NCBI GenBank assembly: GCA_964016885.1
Contig: OZ024752.1
Coordinates: forward strand, 46,748,001-46,812,000
Length of the DNA: 64,000 nucleotides
Reading direction: 5' to 3'
Source: Eledone cirrhosa
Lineage: Eukaryota
A program made the translations under genes and the position numbers. Positions 3,900 to 64,000 of the stretch are shown here, in pieces (positions within the stretch are counted from its first letter, which is position 1; each line of letters begins with the position of its first letter). Under the pieces are notes generated by a model that searched no databases, was not told the DNA's origin, and was given only the letters and a program-made list of their open reading frames with translations.

Positions 3900-5130
3900 T
3901 ATAATAATAATAATAATGAAATATTGTGTACAGTGCTCAGGTGCACCACAACTCATCAAAAAGTGTATGTATAGTACATAGGGTAATGTACAAACGTCAG
4001 GAAAATGAACAGTGCATGAGTCATGATACACACGTGTGCATGTGTATGGAAGGGGTACATCAGGTGTAGTTTTGGCGTATTTCGGGAAGCATGAGTGTCT
4101 TAAAGGATGCAGTGTCTCGACAGCTAACAACTGACTCAGGTAGTTTGTTCCATGCTTCAGCAACTCTGAGCGTGAAAAAATGTCTACGAAAGTCATGGGA
4201 GCTGTGCCGTTTTCTGATTTTGTAGGCATGTCCACGTGTGTTAGACACATGGAGATCAAAAAGGTGCTCAGGGTTGTTGTTGGCGAGATGGTTAATAACT
4301 TTGTGGGTATTTACCAAGTCCATTGCCAGACGTCGGAGCTTCAATGAATCCATGCCCAGGGAAGCAAGGCGTTCAGAGTATGGTAGGTGTCTGATGGAGG
4401 GTATGCGCTTGGTTGCACGTCTCTGAACAGTTTCCAGGTCAATGTTCTGAGCAAGATAGGGGTTCCAGACTGATGATGCGAATTCCAAGTGTGGTCGTAC
4501 CATAGCTGTATACAGTTTTAAATAGATGGCTGGAGAGCGGCTAACAAAGGTCTTGCTGAGTGATGCCAAAACACCCTCGGCCTTCTTGATATCAGTGTTG
4601 TGAAGGGAGTATGTGGATGCTGGATTTTTCCTCCCAAAATCCACAGCCAGCTTCAGTTGCCAGTCTGTGATCCATTGTGTCCAGGTCTGATTGTAGGAAA
4701 GAGTTGTAGATTTCAGGATCAGTCCTTTTGATTTCAAGGTACAGCTTGATGTCATCTGCATATTTCAGTACCGTGGCATTCTGTAAGTTGGCATCTATGT
4801 CATTAATATATGCCACAAACAAAAGGGGACCAAGAACAGATCCCTGTGGTACACCAGATGACATCTCATATGGTGAAGAATGCTGTCCTAGAACCGTGAC
4901 TACCTCTTTTCGGCTGAGAATGAAGGATTTCAACCAGTCGAAAAGATCATCCCTCACACCCATTGCAGAGAGTTTTGCCATAAGTCTTTTGTGTGGCACA
5001 GAATTAAAAGCCTTAGCAAAGTCAAGGTAAACAACATCCACCCATGAGCCGCTGTCAGTGATCCGGGTGATGTCTTCAAGGAACTCGATAAGCTGATCAC
5101 AGCAGCTGGAGTTAGGGATAAATCCAAACT
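3900..5130 (-). mobile_element. 5'-truncated, frameshifted CR1-clade LINE (RT domain and 3' end)
   Basis: VYLDFAKAFNSVPH, GVPQGSVLGPLLF, YADD in ORF 4592-5170; RPHLEFASSVWNP, QRRATKRIP, TRGHAYK, FFTLRVAEAWNKLP in ORF 4060-4761; short ATT-repeat tail near 3900. Confidence 0.9.
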
Positions 5131-6971
5131 TGTTTCTACTTTTGACAAGGCCAGCAACTACCCAGTACATTACTGGTACTTTATTTTATTGACCCCGAAA
5201 GGCAAAGTTAACCTCGGTGGGATTTGAACTCAGTCCGTATATTTATATAAATAATTGTTTCTACTTTTGGCACAAGGCCAGCAATTATGCAGTACATTAC
5301 TGGTACTTTATTTTATCGACCCCCGTAAGGATGAAAAGGATTTGAACTCAGACCGTGACTCTTTGCTGCAAAGCATGGCATCAGGCCCTCTACTGATACA
5401 TATAAATAATAGTAGTAAAACATTTCTATGACCCAGAAAGATAACTTGATTATCATGTTTGTATCTCTTGTCCATTGTAACGATGTCACAATGTATTGGA
5501 GTGTATCCTACTTTTGGAGTCTGAATCTGTGGAGAGGTGATGAAGTGGTAGTCATTAGAATGTTGGAGAATATTCATTCCAGTTTTCTGAGATTGAAGTT
5601 TAACTCTTTTGCATTTAAACCGGCCACATCCAGCCAGAATTCTCTTACCTCTTTCTGTTCAAACAGGACGTAACTGGCTGCTCATACTTATGTGAAGATA
5701 TTGTTCTCAAAATATAATATCAAAACCTCGTAGATTCAATATTATGTGAGATAATTCATCATCATCGTCGTTTAACGTCTATCTTCCACGCTAGCATGGG
5801 TTAGATGGGAATTGTCCCACTTGAGGCAAGATTGATCGGGTGACCGTGTCTCCCTCATACGGAACTGCATCTGGCAGGTTTTCTACAGCTGGATGCCCTT
5901 CCTAACACCAACCACATTTACAGTGTGGACTGGGAGCCTTTTTACTGTCTCCTACACATAAATATGTGAAATAAAGTGTTTACAGTGAAAATACAATAGT
6001 ATATATAGAGTAATGTAAATGCTAGAGGGTTAAAATCTGAAGTCAACTTTGCCTTTTATCGAGGTTGACCAAAAAAAGTACCAGTCCAGTACTGGTATCA
6101 ATTCTGCCAATTTCTCATCTACTCTGGAAAAGATTGGTTGTGTTCAGACCTGGAGAGGAGATGAGCTCCTCTGACAGGTTGAAAATGTCCAAGATACAAG
6201 GACAGGATGACCATACTATCAGCTACATGTCTCTTCAGTCACACCTAGGACAGGATGACCATACCATCAGTTACGTGTCTCTTCGGTCACGTCAAGAACA
6301 TGACGACCACACCATACCAGATACCTCATACCATCAATTACATGTCTATTTGTAGGTAAAGTTATCACACCTCAAATATACTTCACAGCCAAATATTTGT
6401 AAAATTTCATTAGGTTTTAGAAACCTCTCATATAAAGAAATATCTGTTAATATTTTCATTACCATATTTCTAATGAAGTACATTGCATAGGATCTACAAA
6501 TAATTTTGAAAATATTCAAGAATTTTCGATTTGGTAATACAACTTTCTTATTCCTAAGCTGGATTTCAAGTATAATTTAACAAAACTCCTTGCACAAAAT
6601 TACACACACTTTAAAATAAAGTTTTGTATCATAGAATTGGAGACAGTTTCAAGTATTTTAGTATCAAAATAGCTTAACATTTTTTTCTTTTAGTATTTTT
6701 TTCATCAAAATATATTTTCAGGATTTTGATTTTCGGTATTCTAATTTTTGAAAATAATGTTTGGAATAATGGTGTTTGAGGTTATCCCTTTCAGGATTAT
6801 GACCCAAGTCTAAATAAATTAATCTCTCATCTACATAATACAAAAATGGGAGTAAATTGTAGTTGAAGGCAAGAGTTGGGTAATTCACCAACACTTAAAT
6901 ATCATTAATACTTCCTCCAGACAAGGAAGATCAGGTACAACAATAGAGCATCATTTTGTCACTCTAGAACT

Positions 6972-34494: not shown

Positions 34495-35822
34495 CAAGAT
34501 GCAAGATATATACGTATGTACGTATTTATTAAAATTATAAAATAAATAACTTCAACAAATATTTATTTTTTATAATGAAGTATTTATACCAAACATTTCT
34601 TTGTTTATGTTGACCGTCGCCATGTTACACGACTTAAGAAAAAAAAAAACGTCTTGCACTGAAACAATTATTTAAGCTTTAAAAATAATATATTTGGGTC
34701 AAAAAGAGTAAAATAAAATGATATTTTCTGCTATAATAAATTTATTTTAAAAATCCGTCTTTCTTATTTCTAATATTGTATTTTTATATAGTCTTAAGAT
34801 TTAATTTCTTTTGACCCGACACAAAGCCAATGCAAGGGAGATAATTATTGTATTTAGCAGACAAAAACTCACAGAAAAACTAAAAATAAATTGATTTTAG
34901 GTTGTTCCCCGCCCCCCATTCTTTTATTTAAGATATAGGATAACAGAGTGCTTCTTTTCACACACGTCTGTCGTAATATAATTTAGGGTTGAATAATATT
35001 TATTCCATTTTATAAATACAATTTGTATTTATGGATTGCAAAAAGTACTAATCAATAAAAATATCAGAAAGAAAAAAAATAGTTGATAATAATTATTCAA
35101 AATCAAATACTTTAAATTATGATTTATAATGCCGTTTTGAAGTAGTGCCACTGGTAGTGGTATCGATAATGGTGATCGCTCTCCTTTCTAAATTTTATAA
35201 AGTAAAACTAACAACCAAAATAAAAATCGATAACAACTTCAAAGATTAGAAAACAAGTTTTCTAATCTTTTTCGTATCTGATTTGTTCTTTTTAGGGACT
35301 TTTAAACGTAGATGAATGTAAAAATTGTTGTTGTAGTCTTTATCCTCTCCTCACAAAATGGAGTTTCTAGCCTTTACCCTCTCCTCACAAAATGGAGTGT
35401 TTAGCCTTTACCCTTCTTCTTCCACTTATTCCTGAGAGGGTTGTGGGGGACAGAGTCCTCAAATACTCCTTCCAGTGGGTCCTGTCGAAAGCTATCGTCT
35501 CAAAATGATCCAGCTGGATCCACAAACAAGACCAGCCAAGCTCATGGATGTTATCCAACCATTTTGCTCAGGGTCTCCTGCCAGTTGGTTTTGCCTGTAA
35601 AATCTATCAAACGATTCTTTCCTGAGACATTCTAACCACATGTCTAGCCCACACTGTAAATGTGGTTGGCATTAGGAAGGACATCCAGTCATAGAAACCA
35701 AGCCAAAATCGGTTCTGTATGAGCAAGACATGGTCATCTGACCTCGACTTATCTCAAATAGGACAACTTGTCTAATCCATGTTAGAATGGAAAATGAACA
35801 ATAAACTGTGATGATGATGATG

Positions 35823-35880
<58 letters not shown>

Positions 35881-36028
35881 GGAGTGGGTCGGTAGAGCAC
35901 TCAACTAAAATACTTTTACAGTAATTTAGTTTATATCCCTCTATATTGATGATGGTGGTGGTGATATAATTTACTCTGAATTGATAAAATAACAAATAAA
36001 GACAAATTCCCCAAAGATACCAAAATTG

Positions 36029-36034
36029 TTTATT
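36029..36034 (-). terminator. Candidate IDH1 poly(A) signal
   Basis: AATAAA on the minus strand about 250 nt after the stop, followed by T/G-rich sequence. Confidence 0.55.
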
Positions 36035-36243
36035 CATAAACATTCACAAAATATAAATACTTATATATTACCTGCATCTGAAATATGAATTTCAGATTTT
36101 TTCCTCTTCTTAATATAGGCTAACGTTGATTAATGTTATGATAATAATTAGCCTACATTTTCATTAAAACTTTAAAAGATGATTAAAAATATTTTGAAAG
36201 TAGAAAAGACATTTGAATCCTTATAAGTTAATATGCTTAAATG

Positions 36244-36282
36244 TCATAGTTTACTCTCTGTTATCAAGTTGGACCTGCTCAG

Positions 36283-36285
<3 letters not shown>
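36244..36285 (-). other. Putative stop-codon readthrough extension of IDH1 encoding a PTS1 (UGA-LSRSNLITESKL-stop)
   Basis: TGA CTG AGC AGG TCC AAC TTG ATA ACA GAG AGT AAA CTA TGA read directly in frame after the last sense codon. Confidence 0.8.
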
Positions 36286-50431
<14,146 letters not shown>

Positions 50432-50683
50432 TTTATCAGCGTTGTAATATTATGATGTGTCAATTGACAACTCCGTAGATGGTTTCCTAAACTTAGACTG
50501 TTTCTTTCTTTACACCTACCACCTTTTGATCGACCTGCTTCAATAAATACCACAATATCGAACTAACCCCCTTTATCAGCCGATTGAGAGATGAATTGAG
50601 GGCTGCCGACTGGGTTTTTATTTTTAAAATTATCTTTGTAGTAACTTAGTATCGATGCTTATGCTGATAGTGGTAACGATGAC

Positions 50684-51657
50684 TGTGGTGGTAGTGGTAA
50701 TTAAGGTGGTGGTGGTTGTTGTAGTGGTGGTGGTGGTGGTGGTTGTAGTAGTGGTGGTGGTGGTGATGACGATGGTGGTGGCGGTGGTGGTATGGTGGTG
50801 GTGGTGGTGGTGACGATGGTGGTGGTGGTTGTGGTTGTAGTAGTGGTGGTGGTGGCGGTGGTGGTTGTGGTGGTGGTAGTGATGACGATGGTGGTGGTAG
50901 TAATGAAGGCGGTGGAGGTTGTGGTTGTAGTAATGAAGGTGGTAGTGGAGACAGTGGTTGTGATTGTGGTAGAGGAAGTAGTGGAGACGGTGGTGGTGGT
51001 AGTGGAGGTGGTAGTGGAGACGGTGGTGGTAGTGGTAGTGGAGGCGATGGTGGTGGAGGCGATGGTGGTAGTGGAGACGGTGGTAGTAGTGGAGGCGATG
51101 GTGGTGGTGGCGATGGTAGTAGTGGAGGCGATGGTGGTAGTGGAGGCGATGGTGGCGATGGTAGTGGAGACGGTGGTGGTAGTGGAGGCGATGGTGGTGG
51201 AGGCGATGGTGGTAGTGGAGGCGATGGTGGTGGTAGTGGAGGTGGTAGTGGAGACGGTGGTGGTGGTGGTGGTGGTAGTGAAGGTTGTAAATACGATGTT
51301 GTTGTTGCTGTCGTTCCTTTTATTGTATTTTTTCTTGTTATGTAAATGCTATTACTACTATTACTACCACCACCACCACCACCACTACTACTACTACCAT
51401 ACTACTAACACTACTACTACTACCACCACCATTACTACTACCTTACTACTATCACTACCACCACCGCCACCACCACTACTACAACTACTACCACCACCAC
51501 TACTACTACCATACTACTACTACCACCACCATTACTACTACCTTACTACTATCACTACCACCACCACCACCACCACTACTACAACTACTACCACCACCAC
51601 TACTACTACCACCACCATTACTACTACCTTACTACTATCACGACAACTACCGCTACC

Positions 51658-51691
<34 letters not shown>

Positions 51692-51798
51692 GCACCACCA
51701 CTACTACTACATCCACCACGGCTGCTGTTATATAATTGCCAATACTACCACTACTACAACCACTACAGACACCACCACTACTACTACTACTACTACTG
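50684..51798. repeat. (GGT/GGN)n tract followed by (ACC/ACT)n tract upstream of IDH1
   Basis: G-rich triplets about 50684-51280, C/A-rich triplets about 51345-51798. Confidence 0.9.
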
Positions 51799-52540
51799 TT
51801 AACGCTTTTGTTTTTTGCTTATTGGGGTCTGTAAGTTGTTTGTATTTATTTTTTCAGCTGATGTAATCACGTGACAGCACCTATTTTACAAACCATACGC
51901 CCATTATATAAATTTGTATACATACACACACACACACACATATGTATATATGTCTCTCTATATATATATATATAAATATGTATATATGTATATTATATAT
52001 GCATATATATATATATATATTATATATGCATATATATATATAATATATGCATATATATATATATTATATGCATATATATATATTATATATGCATATATAC
52101 ATATATATATGCATATATATATATATGCATATATATATATATATTATACATGCATATATATATATATTATATATGCATATATATATTATATATACCTATA
52201 AATATGTATATATACATATATATATATGTATATATATATTATACATGCATATATATATGCATGTATAATATATATATATTTATATGTATATATAATATAT
52301 ATATGCATATATAATATATATATATGCATGTATATTATATATGCATATATATTATATATACATATAAATATGTATATATACATATATATATGTATATATA
52401 TGTATATATATATATATATTATACATGCATATATATATATATTATATATGCATATATATATATATTATATATGCATATATATATATATTATATATGCATA
52501 TATAATATACATATAAATATATATATATACATATAAATAT

Positions 52541-52574
<34 letters not shown>

Positions 52575-52737
52575 TTATATACATATAAATATGTATATAT
52601 ATATACATATAAATATGTATATATATATATACATATAAATATGTATACATATATACATATAAATATGTATATATATATATATATATAAATATGTATATAT
52701 ATATATATATAAATATGTATATATATATATATATATA

Positions 52738-53105
52738 CGACCGTGACTTCTGGCGTCACGCAGTAATACAGGGTACCCGACCTCCCATGGGTACATGCTG
52801 AAGCATATAAACAATATGCCCCCCCCCCCCCCCACCGCAAGGTGGTCGTGGAGGTGCCACGGCAAAAAAGCACCCAGCCCACACTGTAAAGTGGACGTGT
52901 AGGCGCCACGAAAAAGCACCCAGCACTCACTGTAAATGAGGTTGGTGTTAGGAAGGGCATCCAGCTGTAGAAATCAAGCCAGATCAGTTCCTGTATGAGC
53001 AAGGCATGGTCAGCCGACCAGACACTGCCCACAACAGGACAACCCGTCTAACCCATGCTAGCGTGGAAGAACGGACGTAAAACGGTGATGATGATGATGA
53101 TGATG
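52738..53105 (+). mobile_element. Second SINE-like family ending in (GAT)n (other copies near 1983-2135, 5757-5955, 15425-15650, 23075-23372, 35645-35822)
   Basis: Shared GTTAGGAAGGGCATCCAGCTGTAG and AACCCATGCTAGCGTGGAAGA..GGACGT.AAACGATGATGAT; 52738-53105 and 23075-23372 are closely similar. Confidence 0.75.
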
Positions 53106-53169
53106 ATATATATATAAATATGTATATATATATATATATATATAAATATGTATATATATATATATATAA

Positions 53170-53200
<31 letters not shown>

Positions 53201-53201
53201 A

Positions 53202-53272
<71 letters not shown>

Positions 53273-53388
53273 TGTATATATATATATATATAAATATAAT
53301 GGAAAAATTCGAACAGGAACAAAACAGAGAGGCAGTACAACGAATGTTTATTAATTTCACGCTCTGGAGAGTGGGGTGATGGTGGGGA

Positions 53389-53420
53389 ACGACGTTTCGG
53401 GCATAAGCCCTTCCTCAGGT
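53389..53420 (-). ncRNA. Minimal hammerhead core, helix I degenerate
   Basis: CTGAGGA-A-GGGC(TTAT)GCCC-GAAA-CG-TC on the minus strand. Confidence 0.45.
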
Positions 53421-53893
53421 GAGAAGTGTGAGGGAACAGAGTGCAAAGGGTGTGTAGGGGAGTGGTGGAGAGACATATAGCGAAAGGAAACGTTTCGAAT
53501 GTAATTAAAAATAAAAATAAAAATAAAGCAGGATCAAAATAAAAGGAATGAAATAAAAATAAATATAAAAGCATGATCAAAATAAACTGAAATTAAAAAG
53601 GGGTAAAACAGGTGGTGGAAGGGTGTGGGGTGTGTAGGGGTGGTGGCGGGTGGAATGGGGAGAGGGAGACGGGGTGTCCGAACGGGGAGGGCTGAAGGTG
53701 GTGTGTGTGTAGGTGTACGTGTGTGTGTGTGTGTGTGTAAGTGAAAGCAAGGGCTGGGGGAAGAACGGGGTTGCATGTTCAGGAAGAGGTGTGTATGGGG
53801 GGGGGGGGTAGGTCGGAGTGTCTGTGCGTGTGTGGATAGAGGGGTATATTTATATACATATAAATATGTATAAATATATATATATACATATAA

Positions 53894-53942
<49 letters not shown>

Positions 53943-54758
53943 TGTATATATATATATATATATAAATATGTATATATATAAATATGTATATATATATATA
54001 TATAAATATGTATATATATATAAATATGTATATATATAAATATGTATATATATATATATATAAATATGTATATATTTATATACATATAAATATGTATATA
54101 TATATATATATATATAAATATGTACATATTTATATACATATAAATATGTATATATATACATATATGTATATATATATATATATAAATATGTACATATTTA
54201 TATACATATAAATATGTATATATATATATACATATAAATATGTATATATATTTCGTTTCTGAATTTGTTTAGCAAGATTCTTTATCTGAAATCGTGTGTT
54301 GAAACCGATATTGTTATACTTTGGGAGGGTCATGTTGCCAATAAGAAACACACGCACCAGTTGCTTTCACTTCAATTTATTATATATCTATAAATTTATA
54401 AATTTACAAATCTATAAATTTCTGGTTGGTTGGTTGGTTCCACAACCAGATAGTTGTTTATATATAGTCATAGTCCTTTCGTCACACACTCTGTGACCTC
54501 TTCAGTGACTGGGGATTCCTTTCTTTGTTTCTGTGCCTTTCCTTTCTTCTGTCCTACGCCATTTTGTTTCATATATATATATATATGATGGCATATATAT
54601 ATATATATGCCGTCGAAACGGCTTGAGCTCAGCCGTCGGGATCCTACTCGTTCATATTACCCACTCTACTACCCTAAGTATCGAGTACTTTGGTGCGTTA
54701 TGGTCCATCTGGTTTCTTACCACATTTCCTTTGTTATATATATATATATATATATATA

Positions 54759-54934
54759 CGAGGGTAATCCCAAAAGTAAGGTCTTCCTTTCGAGGAAAAC
54801 ATGCGTAAAGATCGGCGGATCACTCTGGATGCTCTCCGCATTTTGGTTCCCGAGGTTACCCGAAGCACCATCCACAGGATTTTAACGGAAAAGTTGCAAT
54901 ATCGGAAGGAGACCTTACTTTTGTGATTGCCCTC

Positions 54935-54935
<1 letters not shown>
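54759..54935 (+). mobile_element. Internally deleted mariner element inserted in (TA)n
   Basis: TIRs CGAGGGTAATCCCAAAAGTAAGGTCT / AGACCTTACTTTTGTGATTGCCCTCG; interior reads KDRRITLDALRILVPEVTRSTIHRILTEKLQYRK (mariner transposase HTH remnant). Confidence 0.85.
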
Positions 54936-54991
<56 letters not shown>

Positions 54992-55274
54992 AATGCTTCT
55001 CTCCCACTCTTCACCACACCCATACAATTATACATACATTCATTTGTCTATTCTTTTGCTTTCTATTTATATTTTTATTATCCACTCAAATGTTGCTATC
55101 TCTATTATACATTCATATATTTTTTTCCATTTTCTATTCACTTCTCTTTTTCTAATTTCCCTATATATACACACATATATACATATATACATATATATAT
55201 ATATACACATACTACTCATGCTGGCGTGGACAATGGACGTTAAACGATGATGATGGTGATGATGTATATATATG

Positions 55275-55305
<31 letters not shown>

Positions 55306-55446
55306 ATGTATATATATGCAGGTTATACTTGGAGTAATAATAGTTAAAGAATGAGAATTAACATGGTTGGCTGTACAATAAGGGCTTTATTTAAAGTGCT
55401 GACAATTGTTTCGTTGATCATGTGGGTCTAGAGTTTGCTAATCGCT

Positions 55447-55479
<33 letters not shown>

Positions 55480-55483
<4 letters not shown>

Positions 55484-56090
55484 TTTAAGGAAGTGGCCTT
55501 GATCAATATGTAGAAAAGGAGTAGGCATAAACTCTATATGATGTACACCATGCAAATCTTGTACACAAAAGGTGTAGTGGGATAGCAGGCAAACTAACAG
55601 GAAAGGAAAACTTTGTATATAGTAGATGTTCAGGGACAATTGATAGTAAGTGTGCCAATAATGATAATAAAATAAATAATATTAACCTGTTCCAGTCCTA
55701 TAAATGATCCATAGAAGTGGTTGATAGCTTCTGCTACCTAGCTGATATAATTAGCAGTGAAGGTAGGTGCTCAGAGAACATAGTAGCTAGAATAAGGCCA
55801 GGATGGAAGAAGTTTAGGGAACTGCTACCCCTGCTAATAACAAAAGGTTTCTCCCTACAAATAAAAGAGTGTCTGTATGATGCTTGAGTGTTTAGTTACT
55901 GGGTATAAGAGGTATCAGATATGTGTAGGTGAGAAAACTGTGCTGGTATGGATATGTGATGTGAATGATGATTGGTGGGTGAAGAAGTGTCAGGTAATCC
56001 CAGTAGAAGGAAGCTGCAATAGAGAAAGACTATGGAAGACCTGGATGGAAGTGGGAAAAAAACCAGCCAGCAGGAAACCTAGGGGGTAGA
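55480..56090 (+). mobile_element. Decayed RTE-type LINE fragment
   Basis: Broken frames reading IEVVDSFCYL, ARIRPGWKKFRELLPLL, WVKKCQ..VEG...KTW.E, typical of the RTE ORF C-terminus. Confidence 0.65.
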
Positions 56091-57733
56091 CCCCCGAGCA
56101 AAATGGTTGGATAACATCCATGAGCTCGGCTGATCTTGCTTAGGGGTCCAGCCAGATCAACTGAACACAGTTGTTTTTGACAGGTACTGCTGAAAGCCAT
56201 GCTTGAGGACTCTGCACCTTCACATTATCTATACGTTAAAGATGTGTGTACTGAATGACATACATGATAAATTCTTAATTTATTGAAAAGTAAATTGTCA
56301 GCCAGAGAAAGGTAGCGAAATCCTTGTGACTGTTGTTAGCATCTCTGATGGAGCAAGGGAGATAATTTACAAAATCAAGGATGAATTGATATTTGAATTA
56401 ACATGCAAAGGGAAATTGACAGTATGGAGCATTGGTGGTGAGATACAGAAAGACGTAGACAGACATAAAGTTATGTCTCCTTCACCTATATAGTGAGAGA
56501 GGGGGGGACCAGTGAGCGATATGTACATAAATAGAGAGAGAAAAGGAACGACATTTGTTTAGAGAGAGGGGGAAGGGGTGACAGAAAGAGGGAGCAGACG
56601 TCGCCCCCATCTATTCTTTATAACATCTAAATCAAACTGGATAGTTGTTGACTTATGTAATGTGGGATTCCCACCAAAAACTTCTGCAACATGATAAAGC
56701 TTTGTGGTTTATATTTTAGGATTTAATTGTACATACATTCGAGAAGCAAATGGCGTGTATTAAATTTGATAATGTTTATGGTTAACAAAAGTCAGAAAGA
56801 AGAAAAAAAAGGGGAGAAAAGGAGACGTATGCATTCCTTTAATTACACACCACAACAAGAAATGCTGTTGTTGACTTCTAGAGATTTTCAAGACAAGCCA
56901 AGACACTCACGGTAATAACACGGGTGATGGCGAGGTTAAGGCGCTAGAATAGCCAAGCACCCCCTCGTGAGTCTCATCTGATACTTGAAAGAGATGCCAA
57001 TTGTCTTCTTAAAGCTTGTTCCATTACAATTGATTTTTTTTCTTCCGTATGTGTGTGAACGTAGAATTACATCAGTTGAGAATTCCTGTGTTCTTGTATT
57101 TATTTGCTCATTATTTATTTTATGTGACAAATAGACGAAAATCAAGTGGAAATCTTCAACGAAAGCGATGTCCACTGAAACGAACTTCAATTTCAAACTT
57201 GGTTCAGGGGAGCTTACTTTGTGCAAATATGAAGTAAAAATAACAGAGAGATCACAAGCACAAGTTTTCGTTGAACAAAACACGCCCCTTACAATAACAC
57301 ACACTACTGCATAGATGTAGACAGATAGAGATGTAGATAAGCATTCAGACATACAGATAGATAAATATAACGTGGTAAAGGAATTAGTAAGAATCAACAA
57401 TTACGATTTAGATTCCTATTGCCAACATTTCATAAATAAAAATATTTGTGAATGTTTGACATTTATGATAGAAATAAGAAAACGAAAATATATTATCAGA
57501 TTCGTTGAATTCATTGTGTATATACACGTAGGTTTCATTTGTCGGCTCGTATTATATATTAAAAAAAAAATCTTCAATTTCTTTACTTTACTGACTATGA
57601 TTTCTTGCGGAGAGGGGACTTGCTTCCTCCAGATCCAACATTGATGTCCTGGGCATATTTAGTGCTACCTGTTAACATTGAAATGTGCGTAAAGGTTGAT
57701 AACATTACTTGAAGTATCGTCTTTGGTCTGTAC

Positions 57734-57784
<51 letters not shown>

Positions 57785-58049
57785 TGTCAGACCTACCAAC
57801 CTCTAAAAACCCAAACGGGGAGTATCACGAAAAAAAGTGCCTCAAAACGGAGAGAAATGATGCAAAATGGGGAGATTTGACATTATGACAGCTATAACCA
57901 TTTTCACAAGAGAAGACATTTATCACCCACCGCAAAGCGAGTGAGAGATTTCCCCGTAGGACGGGGAGAGTTGACAGGTATGTATATGGGTAGCAGAGAC
58001 AGTAGCAAGTAGACTGGAAAAATGGGGTTAGCAGAGACAAGTACCAGGT

Positions 58050-58600
58050 AGCTAAGAGAGAAGCTAGACGACAAGTATATACAGGTCTTGGAACGTGAAG
58101 TGTTCCGCATTGCAAGGCAGTGTGTTAGTGAAAATCGTGATATTGTGGGGTGGGGTAGAAATGGCGCTGATGCACTTAGTATCAACTATGTCCAAAAGAA
58201 AGTGGTATAGAAATGTTACTATGAGAGATTGATGAATGTAGAGAATGAATTAGATGAAGAGAGAGACTATCCATAACTTACCCAACAGAAGGACCAGCTA
58301 TTGAAGTTGACATTCATAGGGCCAAAGAACCAATGAAAGAGATGAAGAATGGTAAAGCTGCGAGATCGTCAGAAATAGTTGCTGAGATGCTAAAAGCATC
58401 GGGAGAAGTAGGAGCCGAACTTGTAAATCAGGTAATACAGGACGGAATAATTGGAGCTTAAAACTGGCTGTCCACGGGAACTTCTCTATGCAGATGATTT
58501 GGTCCTTATAACCGAATTCATAAAAGAACTAGAAAATAAGTTTCAACTATAGAAACGGAATCTGAAATCCAAAAGGTCTGAGAGTAAACTTAGCCCAGGT
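58050..58600 (+). mobile_element. Decayed RTE-type LINE RT fragment
   Basis: YYERLMNVEN, MKEMKNGKAA..SEIVAEMLKASG, ELLYADDLVL remnants with stops and deletions. Confidence 0.65.
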
Positions 58601-61469
58601 ATTTCTCGGTTTACTTCTACAGCGGCTTCCTTCCAATTCTTCACCAATCAATTATCATCCATGCGCGCATCAGCTGTCCATACCAAGGCAGTCTTCTCTC
58701 CAGTACACCACTCGGTTTCCTCTTAAACTAAGTTTCTCTCAGTTCATCCAAGCTCTGCCTTTCTCTCACACATCCAACGAAGCATGGCTCCTTCTTTTCT
58801 CTTCAGTCAACGCATGTCTTCTTAAAATATTCTTCATCTCGCAACATTAAAGACAGCATGTTACTTTTACGTCTGGGTTTCAGAATCGAATCGAAATTAT
58901 TTTCTTTTTCATTATCAATACAGAATGTAGGGCGGTGTACTGGTAGTAATCGATAAAGCGTCGGACATGATTTGTGGTATATAGTGACGTCCCTTTACGT
59001 TCTGAGTTAAAAGCCCGCCGAGGTTAAGCTTTGCTTTTTATCCTTACGGGGTCGATAAAATAAAGTACCAGTAACACACTGGTGTTGATTTAAACGACTT
59101 CCCGCTCCCCCAAAATTGTTTGCCTTGTGCCAAAATCAGAAACCATTATCAATACAATATATATATATATATATAAATATTTGCAGTTCTCTGGTTCTGG
59201 GCTCGGCACCACGACCAATATTCTACCGTAACTTTGGTTCGATGGAAACTGGCAATGTATCTGGTGAACCATAGTTTCTCCATTCTTCAACTACTCTCAG
59301 AGAATCTGCAAAGGTCATGCTGCCCTTTCTCATTTGGTTTATTAATAAACAAAATAACGTATCTTTTATTTTGGTTCGTTAGCTTGGGATAAGATTTCTG
59401 GTCATTATTTTTTCTTTTTCGTCCGCGGGGTATGGCTGAAGAACCACTTAGACTGGGGTATAGTGTTTGTCCCCCCCCCCCCTGTTTGATCCTTTTTTTT
59501 TTCTTTTCTTTTCCTTTAATAGGGTTTTATTTTTATGTAATTATATTCTCGAAATAAAAGGCCGAGTATTTACATTGACGACAAAAAAGTTGAAAGTGAA
59601 GTGAATGAAAAGTTGACCATATATTCTCTCATTTCACAAAATACTTACTGTCCCGCCAAAAGAGATCACAGTTTCTAAGCAGTAATTGATATGGTTCTCT
59701 GAATGTTTACTTTTAGTTTTACAACATTCATCAATAAGAAATATTCTTTTCTTTTTGATTGAGGAAATGTATATTTTAGGGAAAAGGAAAACAGAATATT
59801 CTGTCTCTCAGGATTGTTAACGTGTGTATTAAATGAGAAAGGCGATGTTATTAGTAATTGAAACTTCAGTGGACTCACCCACATTTAGCTATAAAATGTT
59901 GGTTTCATTTTAATACTAAAAAATTCTCGATAACTTTCAGTTTAAAAAGAGAATATTTCACTCTCCTCCTCGTGTTTTTTGTCGATATTAATCCCATAAA
60001 TAAATTAAAATTACTTAAATTATCAATGACCCCCCATAATAATTATCAACGAATGCAATTAGTTAGTAAAAAAAATATTTTGTTGCGTCATTAGGGATTT
60101 TTTAAACCACATATACATATATATATATATATATATAGGAACATTTTCAAGACCCCGACGGCAGAGCTCAAGCCATTTCGACGGCTATTTCTGGACAAAA
60201 TAGCCGTCGAAACGGCTTGAGCTCTGCCGTCAGGGTCTAGAAAATTTTCCTATTACCCACTCTACTACCCTAAGTATTGAGTACTCTGGTGCGTTATGGT
60301 CCACCTGGTTCCTTACCATACTTTCTTCCTTATATATATATATATAGTCAAATTTTCTTAATGCGCCTTACATAAGAAACACACGGAGAGGATAAAAACA
60401 TTAAATGTTTATAGAGGTTAATAAAGTGGAAAGATTCAGTTTGTCTTCTTATAAAATGTTTTTATAAGAAGTAATAGAGAGAATATTTAAATATGAGGCT
60501 GATATATATTTTGTCAGTGCACGATATACACAAACAACTTTTCTAAAAACGCACATGTAGGAAAAAAAAATATACACCTCCATATATATATATATATATA
60601 CACACATATATATATATGCACACACACACATATATATATATATATATGCACACACATATATATACACACACACAACAAAGAGAGGACAAGACAACGAACG
60701 GAAACAAAACAAAAAACAATTTTTAAAGAGGAAACCTTAAAAAAATTATCTAAAAAAAAAAAAGATATATAAACGAATGACACAGAAGTATAGGGTCACC
60801 GTCCGTTGAGATGGACTTTGGCAGTTTCGACCCCTACCAACGGTTCCGCTGGTCCACCCGGGGTCACAGTGTCTGACATAAGCCAAACACTGTCCAGTGG
60901 AATAAGAGATGAGAGACAAAACATTAATTTATAGTAATTAAGCTATAAAACACATAAAATGTTGTATATAACATACAAACAAAAGCCCCAAACAAGTTGG
61001 CACATGTGATTCCAACTACATAATTACTTTCTATGTATGATTAAATTAAAAAAAAATATTTCGAACTAAAATTATTCCAAATATTTTTTTTTATAATCAT
61101 TTTTATTTTTAATTTTTAATTAAAGCAAAATTATTTTAATTGAAAGTTATAGAAATTATTAATAATAAATAAAATTTCATCAATAAAATAACAGATTTGT
61201 TATTGAAATCCAAATAATTTTTATAATGTCAACATTTAGAGTTATATCGTAGCATAACTGTGGTTAAGTAAGGCAAGATTATTTTATTATTTTTTCAGTT
61301 GAGATAAATAATTCGATAAAGAAATGCCTCCATTTCCTGTTGGTATTTCAAAATCTAAACTATCAGCAGCAATAATTGTCTTTTGTACAACAACCTCTTT
61401 AGCCATGCTGTTTTCTTCTGTGTCTATTTTAATAACAGGAGAGTTCCTCCAAAGGGACGTAAATCTTAG

Positions 61470-61530
61470 TCATGGTCGCCATTTGCACGTTTATGGCGCT
61501 TATGTGAACACGCTAGTAACTGGAAAACAA
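61470..61530. promoter_or_regulatory. Putative RBM25 promoter/TSS region
   Basis: Opposed YY1-like motifs CGCCATTT and ATGGCG about 100 nt upstream of the ATG. Confidence 0.3.
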
Positions 61531-61587
61531 TGACTCTGAGTGTTGGAAACGACAATTTTCTTTGAAAAAGGAACCAAAAAGGATATT

Positions 61588-63975
61588 ATGTCTTTACCAC
61601 CTCGGCAACCTATAGGAATGCCACCTATGGTACCTGGTATGATGACACAAGGCTATACTTTTCCAACAATGGGTATGGTATCTGTGAGTCCGATGGGACT
61701 CATACCTCCTGTTATACGACCAATCGTAAGTACAAGTTCCACTTCTACATTGACTCAAAGTAAACCAAAAAAGCTAGAAAATAAAGTAAATGACAAAAAG
61801 AAAGATAAACCTCCTGTAACGACAGTATTTGTGGGTAACATCAGCGACAGAGCGCCAGATGCGATGGTTGGACTTATGCTACAGAAATGTGGCGACGTTT
61901 TGAGTTGGAAACGGGTACAAGGAGCATCCGGGAAAATGCAAGCCTTCGGATTTTGTGAGTATGAAGATCCTGAAGCTACACTCAGGTGTATCAGGCTTTT
62001 AAATGATTTTGAAATTGCTGATAAAAAGTTAGTCGTTAAAGTTGATGCTAAAACTAAAACTTTGCTAGATGAATACGAGAAGAAAAAGAGCGATGAAAAA
62101 AAGATTGCTGAGGCAAAGGTGAAAGAGGATGGAGAGAAAGAGAAAAAGGAAGAAGGAGAAGAATCTGAACAGGAAACACCGGAAACAACTAATGGTGATG
62201 GTCTTGATGATAACACTAAATGTGAAGATAGTCTCATTAAAGCAGGGCTTGACGCTATTCTCAGGGAGTTTGCTGATGATTTGGCCAAAGAGCCACCCGC
62301 AGAAAAAGAGAAAGATGGTAAAGGTATGCATAGGAAAAATAAGGAAGAAAAAATTCAAGCCGATAAGGGCCTTGATGATATGGAGTTGGAAGAAGACACC
62401 AAAAATATTATCAACAGAGAAATTAAGAGCTTCCGAGATCTTCATAAAGACGAGGAAGTGAATGACAAAGAGAATCGAAACCGTGACAGTATGTCTCAGT
62501 CTAGCAGTCGAAGACGACACGACGATTCGAGAGCACGGAAAGATAAAGTTCATAAAAGTAAAATTTTCCAAAGAGATCGAAGCCATTCTAGAAGTTCTTC
62601 CCGGACACGATCTAGGTCTAGATCGGAATCTCGGTCAAGGTCTAGGAGGGATAAGTCTCGAGAAAGATCCAGAGAAAAATCACGAGACCGATCGAGGGAA
62701 AGATCAAAGGACAGAGATCGCAGGGGACGTGGTCGAGACTTTGAAGAGGAAGAGGAAGCTTTGGAAAGACGTAAGCTGGAAAAGAAATTTCGTGAGAAAG
62801 AAGCAGCGTACCAGGAACGATTAAAAAACTGGATGCTCCGCGAGAAGAAACGTATGAGAGAGTACGACAAAGAACGAGAACGAGAATCTGCTCGTAAAGC
62901 TGAAGAGTCCAAAGAAGCTCGGCGCCTCAAAGAGTTCCTGGAAGATTACGATGACTTGCGAGATGATCCAAAGTTTTACAAAGGCAGTGCTCTAGCTCGT
63001 CGACTGAGCGAACGAGAAGTTGAAAAGCAATTAGATGCTAGAGACAGACAGAAAGAAAAGGAAGAGCTAGAAGAGATCCGATTGAGACTCTTACAAGAAG
63101 GCCATGAAGATGCTGAAGCCGAAATTGCTAAAATGGAACAAGAAAGAGATGAACACCTGAAACCTAGGCTTCATTTACTTCCACAGTCACCTTCCCCTGT
63201 GAAGAAACCTCGAACTCCTCCTCTTCCAAGTCCCAGGAAAGAAATGAAGAGCGACTGTGAGATTGTGGAGATCAAACGCAGTCCTCCGCCAAAAATGCAA
63301 CCAACATTAAGACCTGTTGAAATCATCCCTTCCATTGCCAACAATTCCAAAAGCCCATCTGCTGGTATGGAAAGGCCACTTCACAAAAGCCTGGACAGCA
63401 ACATGGAACCAAGCATTTCATCAAATGCTAAAGAGGAACCTGCTAAGATTGGCTTCAGTTCGATAAAGCTTGGCAGTTCAGACAGCCCTAGTGAATGTAC
63501 ATCTTTCAAAAAGAAAAGGATAACTGTCGGTGATGTCTTCAGTCAAGACGACGACAACACAGACGCAGTGAAGAAACGCAAACTTGTTCCATTAGATTAC
63601 GACGAAGAGAAATCTGAAAAGAAAACAACCACAGCCGAAGAAAAGAGACAGTTGATAAAAAAACTTATCGAGCAGATTCCGACAGGGAAGGATGAGTTGT
63701 TCTCTTATCATTTAGACTGGAATACAGTGGACCAAACACTTATGAACAAGCGCATTAGACCATGGGTAAATAAGAAAATAGTAGAGTACATTGGTGAGGA
63801 AGAGCCCACTTTAACTGACTTTATTTGCCAAAAGGTAATTGGACGCAGTTCTCCGCAGAGCATCTTGAATGATGTTGCCATGGTTCTCGACGAGGAGGCT
63901 GAGGTGTTTGTCGTCAAGATGTGGAGATTGCTCATCTATGAGACTGAAGCTAAGAAAGCTGGACTTGTCAAGTAA
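61588..63975 (+). CDS. RBM25: RNA-binding protein 25 (Snu71 homolog), 795 aa, no introns in CDS
   Basis: Pro/Met-rich N-terminus, RRM (VFVGNIS...AFGFCEYE), RE/RD/RS-rich middle, LKEFLEDYDD..DDPKFYKGSAL motif, C-terminal PWI domain (IRPWVNKKIVEYIGEEEPTL...LIYETEAKKAGLVK). Confidence 0.96.
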   Translation: MSLPPRQPIGMPPMVPGMMTQGYTFPTMGMVSVSPMGLIPPVIRPIVSTSSTSTLTQSKPKKLENKVNDKKKDKPPVTTVFVGNISDRAPDAMVGLMLQKCGDVLSWKRVQGASGKMQAFGFCEYEDPEATLRCIRLLNDFEIADKKLVVKVDAKTKTLLDEYEKKKSDEKKIAEAKVKEDGEKEKKEEGEESEQETPETTNGDGLDDNTKCEDSLIKAGLDAILREFADDLAKEPPAEKEKDGKGMHRKNKEEKIQADKGLDDMELEEDTKNIINREIKSFRDLHKDEEVNDKENRNRDSMSQSSSRRRHDDSRARKDKVHKSKIFQRDRSHSRSSSRTRSRSRSESRSRSRRDKSRERSREKSRDRSRERSKDRDRRGRGRDFEEEEEALERRKLEKKFREKEAAYQERLKNWMLREKKRMREYDKERERESARKAEESKEARRLKEFLEDYDDLRDDPKFYKGSALARRLSEREVEKQLDARDRQKEKEELEEIRLRLLQEGHEDAEAEIAKMEQERDEHLKPRLHLLPQSPSPVKKPRTPPLPSPRKEMKSDCEIVEIKRSPPPKMQPTLRPVEIIPSIANNSKSPSAGMERPLHKSLDSNMEPSISSNAKEEPAKIGFSSIKLGSSDSPSECTSFKKKRITVGDVFSQDDDNTDAVKKRKLVPLDYDEEKSEKKTTTAEEKRQLIKKLIEQIPTGKDELFSYHLDWNTVDQTLMNKRIRPWVNKKIVEYIGEEEPTLTDFICQKVIGRSSPQSILNDVAMVLDEEAEVFVVKMWRLLIYETEAKKAGLVK

Positions 63976-64000
63976 TGTGACAATTTCTCTCACATTAAAA

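Follow-up and report, generated by a model that had tools for sequence, protein, structure and literature searches.

The IDH1 gene of Eledone cirrhosa, which lies within the 64,000-nucleotide stretch of DNA analyzed here (the window), ends with a UGA stop codon that is followed in frame by a short tail closing on SKL, a canonical PTS1. The question raised by this locus is whether readthrough of the stop makes a second, peroxisomal IDH1 beside the cytosolic enzyme, as was originally predicted from the sequence of the window. The background to that prediction is firm. A UGA followed by CU is enough to permit readthrough both in Ustilago and in HeLa cells, and readthrough of LDHB and MDH1 was proved in the same work (Stiebler et al. 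2014, PMC4207609). These authors also predicted IDH readthrough PTS1s in Drosophila (SHL), Apis (SKY), Tribolium (ARL) and Aplysia californica (SKL) (PMC4207609, Fig. S3 and Table S2); their IDH list names no cephalopod, and the one IDH sequence that the paper describes testing is the regular C terminus of Ustilago Idp1. The points that the original prediction drew from the literature agree with these sources, namely the leakiness of the UGA-CU core (in fungal and HeLa reporters), the AKL end of human IDH1 (Fig. S3), the Drosophila NADP-IDH readthrough PTS1 (all PMC4207609), and the use of UGA-CUA-G by LDHB and MDH1 to reach a PTS1 (PMC4207609; Schueren et al. 2014, PMC4359377). The literature that we covered contained neither a report from a cephalopod nor an experiment on readthrough in an animal IDH; either could exist in subscription papers or supplements.

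The window encodes a 12-exon IDH1 with an in-frame tail beyond its stop

The gene occupies the minus strand, with 12 exons spanning 50431 to 36283 and GT-AG boundaries at all introns (Table 1). Its spliced coding sequence of 1233 nt encodes 410 residues, has a single, terminal stop and gives the C terminus ...ILMAST. The protein is 93.7% identical to IDH1 of O. bimaculoides, 92.7% to that of O. sinensis and 91.7% to that of Argonauta, and 80-81% identical to those of four other lophotrochozoans. Two exons from the window matched TIGR00127 in a profile search, and O. bimaculoides IDH1 scored 772 bits against this profile (cut-off 397). The predicted product matches eukaryotic NADP-IDHs over its full length and is probably the cytosolic NADP-dependent isocitrate dehydrogenase. 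An in-frame TAA lies 21 nt upstream of the ATG in exon 1, which was placed by homology; a search of 48250-64000 for a first exon with a mitochondrial presequence returned one unconvincing candidate, at 58110.

Table 1. Features of the IDH1 locus, in coordinates of the window
Feature	Position	Strand	Basis or remark
Coding exon 1 (ATG; MSKIK and first base of Gly)	50416..50431	-	Inferred from homology: resembles Octopus IDH1 N terminus MTKIKGG; GT donor in right phase
Coding exon 2	48204..48243	-	
Coding exon 3	44013..44119	-	
Coding exon 4	43545..43631	-	
Coding exon 5	42029..42189	-	TIGR00127, E 1e-30
Coding exon 6	41184..41327	-	
Coding exon 7	40605..40672	-	
Coding exon 8	39742..39810	-	
Coding exon 9	38900..39051	-	
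Coding exon 10	37961..38101	-	
Coding exon 11	36931..37093	-	TIGR00127 match; within spliced X4 contig
Last exon, coding part, ending ...ILMAST-TGA	36283..36367	-	Joint 36931 to 36367 in X4 contig, depth 105
Regular stop with leaky-type context, TGA CTG	36280..36285 (TGA 36285-36283)	-	Read from sequence
Weak in-phase CAG, candidate alternative acceptor	36275..36277	-	10 of 20 pyrimidines upstream, vs 12-18 at the 11 acceptors in use
In-frame tail, 12 codons (CTG AGC AGG TCC AAC TTG ATA ACA GAG AGT AAA CTA), LSRSNLITESKL	36247..36282	-	
PTS1 tripeptide SKL	36247..36255	-	
Second stop, TGA	36244..36246	-	
Likely poly(A) signal AATAAA	36029..36034	-	X4 contig end at 36015, a weak hint

The 3' end reads exactly as the original prediction had it, with TGA-CTG and then an open frame to SKL-TGA on the minus strand, and the two product lengths that it gave also stand: 410 residues for the regular form and 423 for the extended form, counting one residue at the stop (a 13-residue extension). 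The residue preceding SKL is acidic, a feature that weakens PTS1s, and we counted it against the readthrough reading. The third base of the codon after UGA is G rather than the optimal A, so that the context is CUG-A and not CUA-G. The optimal mammalian context is UGA-CUA-G, and UGA-CUU-G gives 0.27% in HeLa cells; we found no published figure for UGA-CUG readthrough, which subscription papers could hold. Folding of the RNA around the stop revealed no stable structure (z = +1.09, +0.85 and +2.13 against shuffles in three folds). Structure-stimulated readthrough of the kelch/alphavirus type calls for a stable fold downstream of the stop; none was found at IDH1, and the leak thus appears to depend on the short context alone. 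When the last exon was translated through the stop and used in a protein search, the five matches among 10 candidates were all Octopus proteins that terminate at the first stop. The search thus recovered no tail-bearing protein from a cephalopod, which is weak evidence either way.

Several other features were evident in the window. The last IDH1 intron carries, at about 36500-36760, a very high-copy repeat, probably a SINE or MITE, at which the summed contig depth rises to ~60,000 compared with 7 beside it. An uninterrupted open reading frame of 811 codons with RRM and PWI domains, presumably RBM25-like, lies on the plus strand at 61540-63975, directed away from (divergent to) IDH1; this intronless copy may be a retrogene. 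A reverse-transcriptase fragment (RVT_1, E 2e-23) at 4595-5185 of the minus strand is likely what remains of a LINE, and an exon at 1287-1853 of the same strand encodes a NOL9 N-terminal domain (E 1e-8).

TGA-CT and an in-frame PTS1 are coupled across IDH1 3' ends

Counting both strands of the window, an in-frame [SAC][KRH][LM]-stop follows 12 of the 7185 other stop triplets (~0.2%), and one of 103 TGA-CT triplets has an in-frame canonical PTS1, that one being the IDH1 stop itself. Because we estimate that a genome-wide scan could yield about one such case by chance, we put the weight on a comparative test. JGI metagenome contigs were scanned for the conserved motif of the IDH1 last exon, and the resulting loci, at least 117, were read to their first and second stops; five lacked a first stop, six lacked a second and 14 were duplicates, leaving 92. 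Forty-two of the 92 listed loci were set aside as ciliate-like, our own label for loci with in-frame TAA/TAG codons and TGA stops, because their genetic code differs. Of these, 41 were recognized by a quick-method tree of IDH1 C termini and one (L003) by hand. The tree (149 columns, 52 of 108 forks open) was used only to separate one 53-row clade, and L009, L052 and L076 form spurious long branches in it. Neither TGA-CT nor a PTS1 was found in any of the 42 ciliate-like loci among the matches listed. The 50 other listed loci include no cephalopod and are not all proven animals; their nearest named proteins, a rough guide often based on 21-27 residues, are from insects, crustaceans, bivalves and gastropods or are brachiopod-like or nematode-like.

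Among these 50 listed matches, a canonical PTS1 ends the extension in 21 of 27 loci with TGA-CT versus 1 of 23 with other contexts (Fisher p 8e-8, which is not a true probability, the loci being related, unnamed and picked by one motif). The lone exception in the latter listed group is a TGA-CAG case. The conservation that the original prediction called for is thus evident as a coupling of frame, TGA-CT and PTS1 among the matches listed, to which Aplysia and the three insects may be added (PMC4207609). The other six listed TGA-CT loci end AKY (3), SQL, ANL and SCL. A broad PTS1 pattern that all 27 of the listed TGA-CT loci fit was drawn up after seeing the data, and for that reason only the strict pattern was used as the test. 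The coupling is confined to one frame, with canonical PTS1s in 0 of 26 and 0 of 24 of the listed TGA-CT loci when read in the +1 and +2 frames, respectively, and 2000 shuffles of these listed loci gave 0.07 on average and never more than 2. The extensions of the listed TGA-CT loci span 4-18 residues and 25 sequence clusters. Only their two ends are conserved, as would be expected if selection acts on stop leakiness and on the tag at the terminus, and from these sequences the pairing of TGA-CT and an in-frame PTS1 looks selected. Not every listed locus shows the trait, since 18 of the 44 listed non-ciliate-like loci that lack a PTS1 at the regular end also lack TGA-CT. A PTS1-like regular end is present in six listed metagenome loci, five of them without TGA-CT.

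A few loci merit separate description. L002 has a regular AKL end plus a TGA-CTA extension ending SKL, and L039 (TGA-CAG...SRL) and L116 (TGA-AAG...PKL) have PTS1-like tails after other contexts; these three may be transitional states. In the hymenopteran-like L012, L034 and L086 the extension ends AKY, close to the Apis SKY (PMC4207609), and the sequences suggest a Tyr-ending PTS1 variant in this group.

These data bear on the possibility that the Eledone tail is accidental or a leftover from an ancestor in which it was used, and that no meaningful amount of peroxisomal enzyme arises from it in this species. In its favor are the CUG-A context and the fact that the readthrough reading rests on sequence, together with one screen in S2 cells in which Drosophila Idh was scored not peroxisomal (Baron 2016, via the review PMC7477296); the review adds that tagging may have interfered with that localization. 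Idh is also unnamed in the text and two small supplements of the fly ribosome-profiling paper of Dunn 2013 (PMC3840789), whose full gene tables may differ and which in those parts names only CG1969 as a PTS1 extension. Against a relic or chance origin, the tripeptide alone has the low background given above, and here an intact SKL, an open frame and TGA-CT occur together. Moreover, the homologous extensions are unalignable, so an unselected relic would be expected to have decayed. Nor is CTG foreign to the coupled loci. The codon after TGA in the 27 listed TGA-CT loci is CTA in 15, CTG in 7, CTC in 3 and CTT in 2, and all seven of the listed CTG loci have a PTS1-like end, canonical in five. 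We consider a relic or accident unlikely.

A second hidden PTS1 and the one NADP-IDH locus recovered in the same genome

The Eledone genome holds a second hidden PTS1, in the textbook case MDH1. By sequence, the last MDH1 exon (contig C28, locus 62408068-62411277, positions 1468-1491 of the minus strand within it) reads TGA CTT, and not TGA CTA, followed by LHDSKL to a TAA. A Pex14_N domain was also found in the genome (E 1e-4, over the cut-off). Searches for a second NADP-IDH gene, in which the best candidates were scored exon by exon, found none, as TIGR00127 and two exon queries matched the IDH1 locus only. With NADP-IDH found at one locus, neither a PTS1-bearing paralogue nor IDH2 was recovered. 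Possible explanations are loss of IDH2 in octopods or a miss by the search, and we treat the absence as a lead, not a result; the literature within our scope, which took in few subscription papers, yielded nothing relevant on IDH2 in molluscs.

Named IDH1 proteins gave a complementary picture. In groups hand-picked by source name from two homology searches, with some species counted repeatedly, a canonical PTS1 stood at the C terminus of 0 of 42 mollusc proteins, 17 of 19 vertebrate proteins ended xKL (4 of them canonical), and three hemichordate proteins ended SKL. Three fly-like database proteins run on past the usual end as W-L...SHL, and one other runs on as W-LCQCKL-W, with a second W directly after CKL; to judge from their sequences, they probably stem from gene prediction in which TGA was translated as Trp. 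The complementarity between molluscs on one side and vertebrates and hemichordates on the other, the lack of a PTS1 paralogue in our searches, Pex14, the W-containing proteins and the 2014 predictions all count for readthrough to a PTS1.

Other candidate routes to the SKL tail

Contigs from four sequencing runs (X1 to X4), which represent at most two samples from one study and some of which may have served to build the assembly, were compared with the 3' end of the gene. Those of X1 and X2 showed 0 differences over 35950-36587, and that of X3 showed one over 35950-36607, which is absent from the listed variants. In X4, a 1804-nt contig of depth 105 joins 36931 to 36367 without the 563-nt GT-AG intron and matches 36015-36367 with 0 differences, leaving the stop and extension unchanged. 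This contig is presumably RNA-derived, although it is not recorded as RNA. It indicates that IDH1 is expressed, that the normal acceptor is in use and that the stop and tail are unaltered in the majority form; contigs such as these hide rare editing and rare splice forms.

The original prediction had named A-to-I editing of UGA to UGG as a second possible route if the host is a coleoid. Such editing of some transcripts would place Trp at the stop and expose the PTS1 without ribosomal readthrough. The host is a coleoid (its IDH1 is 92-94% identical to those of octopods), coleoids edit heavily, rare variants would be hidden in contigs, and the W at the stop position of the four database proteins is what TGG would also give. 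Nevertheless, position 36283 is unchanged in the spliced contig, and the A to be edited has a 5' G neighbor, which ADARs disfavor. There is no stable local fold and no duplex at the site (z = +1.1, +0.9 and +2.1). Editing also leaves the conservation of CT after the stop in the 27 TGA-CT loci among the matches listed unexplained, and one of the W proteins has its second W after CKL, as expected of a gene call made with code 4. The editing route thus found no support in the unchanged contig, the folds or the retention of TGA-CT across lineages, and we regard it as quite improbable.

Less probable still is splicing to the CAG within the tail, which would join exon 11 to ...SNLITESKL and so make a PTS1 form. 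The CAG lies where the original prediction placed it and is in phase with the upstream donor, and splicing-derived PTS1s are known in other genes (PMC4207609). Its use would remove 27 residues, including the conserved TFEF-DK-AENL motif of the C-terminal helix, whose deletion was also foreseen; its pyrimidine tract is the poorest of the 12 sites compared, and the sole spliced contig uses 36367, with no joint to the CAG. Decoding of the UGA as selenocysteine, which has the identity of the codon in its favor, is the least probable route. The stop position is outside the catalytic fold, and the 10 weak Rfam matches in 34500-36500 (E up to 10) include no SECIS family; all of them score below their gathering thresholds and fall outside the 3' UTR.

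Discussion

Readthrough of UGA-CUG most probably makes a 423-residue, predicted peroxisomal IDH1 beside the 410-residue cytosolic enzyme in Eledone. This reading, which was also the original prediction, is supported by the comparative coupling, the MDH1 gene of the same genome and the literature. Starting from the observed layout and its conservation, we infer a pathway in which a near-cognate tRNA would decode UGA in its CU context at a low rate, roughly 1%; the 13-residue extension would then expose SKL, PEX5 would import the extended protein into the peroxisome and the imported enzyme would supply matrix NADPH.

In its sequence the putative isoform resembles those of the LDHBx/MDH1x type, with UGA-CU, a short open tail to a PTS1, a conserved coupling of the two and an unchanged spliced mRNA. 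In human LDHBx and MDH1x, too, UGA-CU readthrough uncovers a PTS1 hidden behind the stop of a cytosolic redox enzyme, and the MDH1 layout in Eledone is alike. However, the human isoforms are experimentally shown (~1-1.6% for LDHB), use UGA-CUA-G and are NAD-linked, whereas the IDH1 case is known from sequence (PMC4207609; PMC4359377). The closest relatives, the IDH genes of Drosophila, Apis, Tribolium and Aplysia, share the enzyme family, UGA-CU and a short tail to a PTS1, which in Aplysia is also SKL; they differ in having TGA CTA rather than TGA CTG, and both theirs and ours are predictions. In vertebrates one IDH1 gene also serves as cytosolic and peroxisomal NADP-IDH (human AKL; PMC4207609, Fig. 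S3), but there the tag is on every molecule, and here it lies behind a stop. The pre-duplication yeast IDP similarly reaches peroxisomes by translational bypass of a stop and a cryptic PTS1 in the 3' UTR, although by a +1 frameshift and not by in-frame readthrough (Yanagida et al. 2015, PMC4526572); in the present data, the other frames have no PTS1.

The mechanism of readthrough to a hidden PTS1 is in itself established, so that a specialist would find the present case expected, and the presence of Aplysia in the 2014 supplement, where a mollusc case was already predicted, lowers its novelty. What is new is that the case comes from a cephalopod, that the arrangement extends broadly over invertebrate-like loci and that no IDH2 was found in the genome. 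Among the matches listed, our comparison widens the prediction from four named species to 25 further sequence clusters. A possible, if rather doubtful, extension is that UGA-CU readthrough of IDH1 is an ancient recoding event common to most protostomes, where it would correspond to the PTS1 that vertebrates and hemichordates have hard-wired, and that in this octopod IDH1 is the only NADP-IDH gene and the leaky stop the only encoded route to an organelle. Readthrough could also explain the non-peroxisomal score of fly Idh, and the natural series of CTA, CTG, CTC and CTT after UGA provides a ready test of the level of leak that selection needs. If the readthrough reading is correct, a peroxisomal isoform is missing from the IDH1 annotations of invertebrates, and the supply of peroxisomal NADPH in molluscs and arthropods would be set by the fidelity of translation termination.
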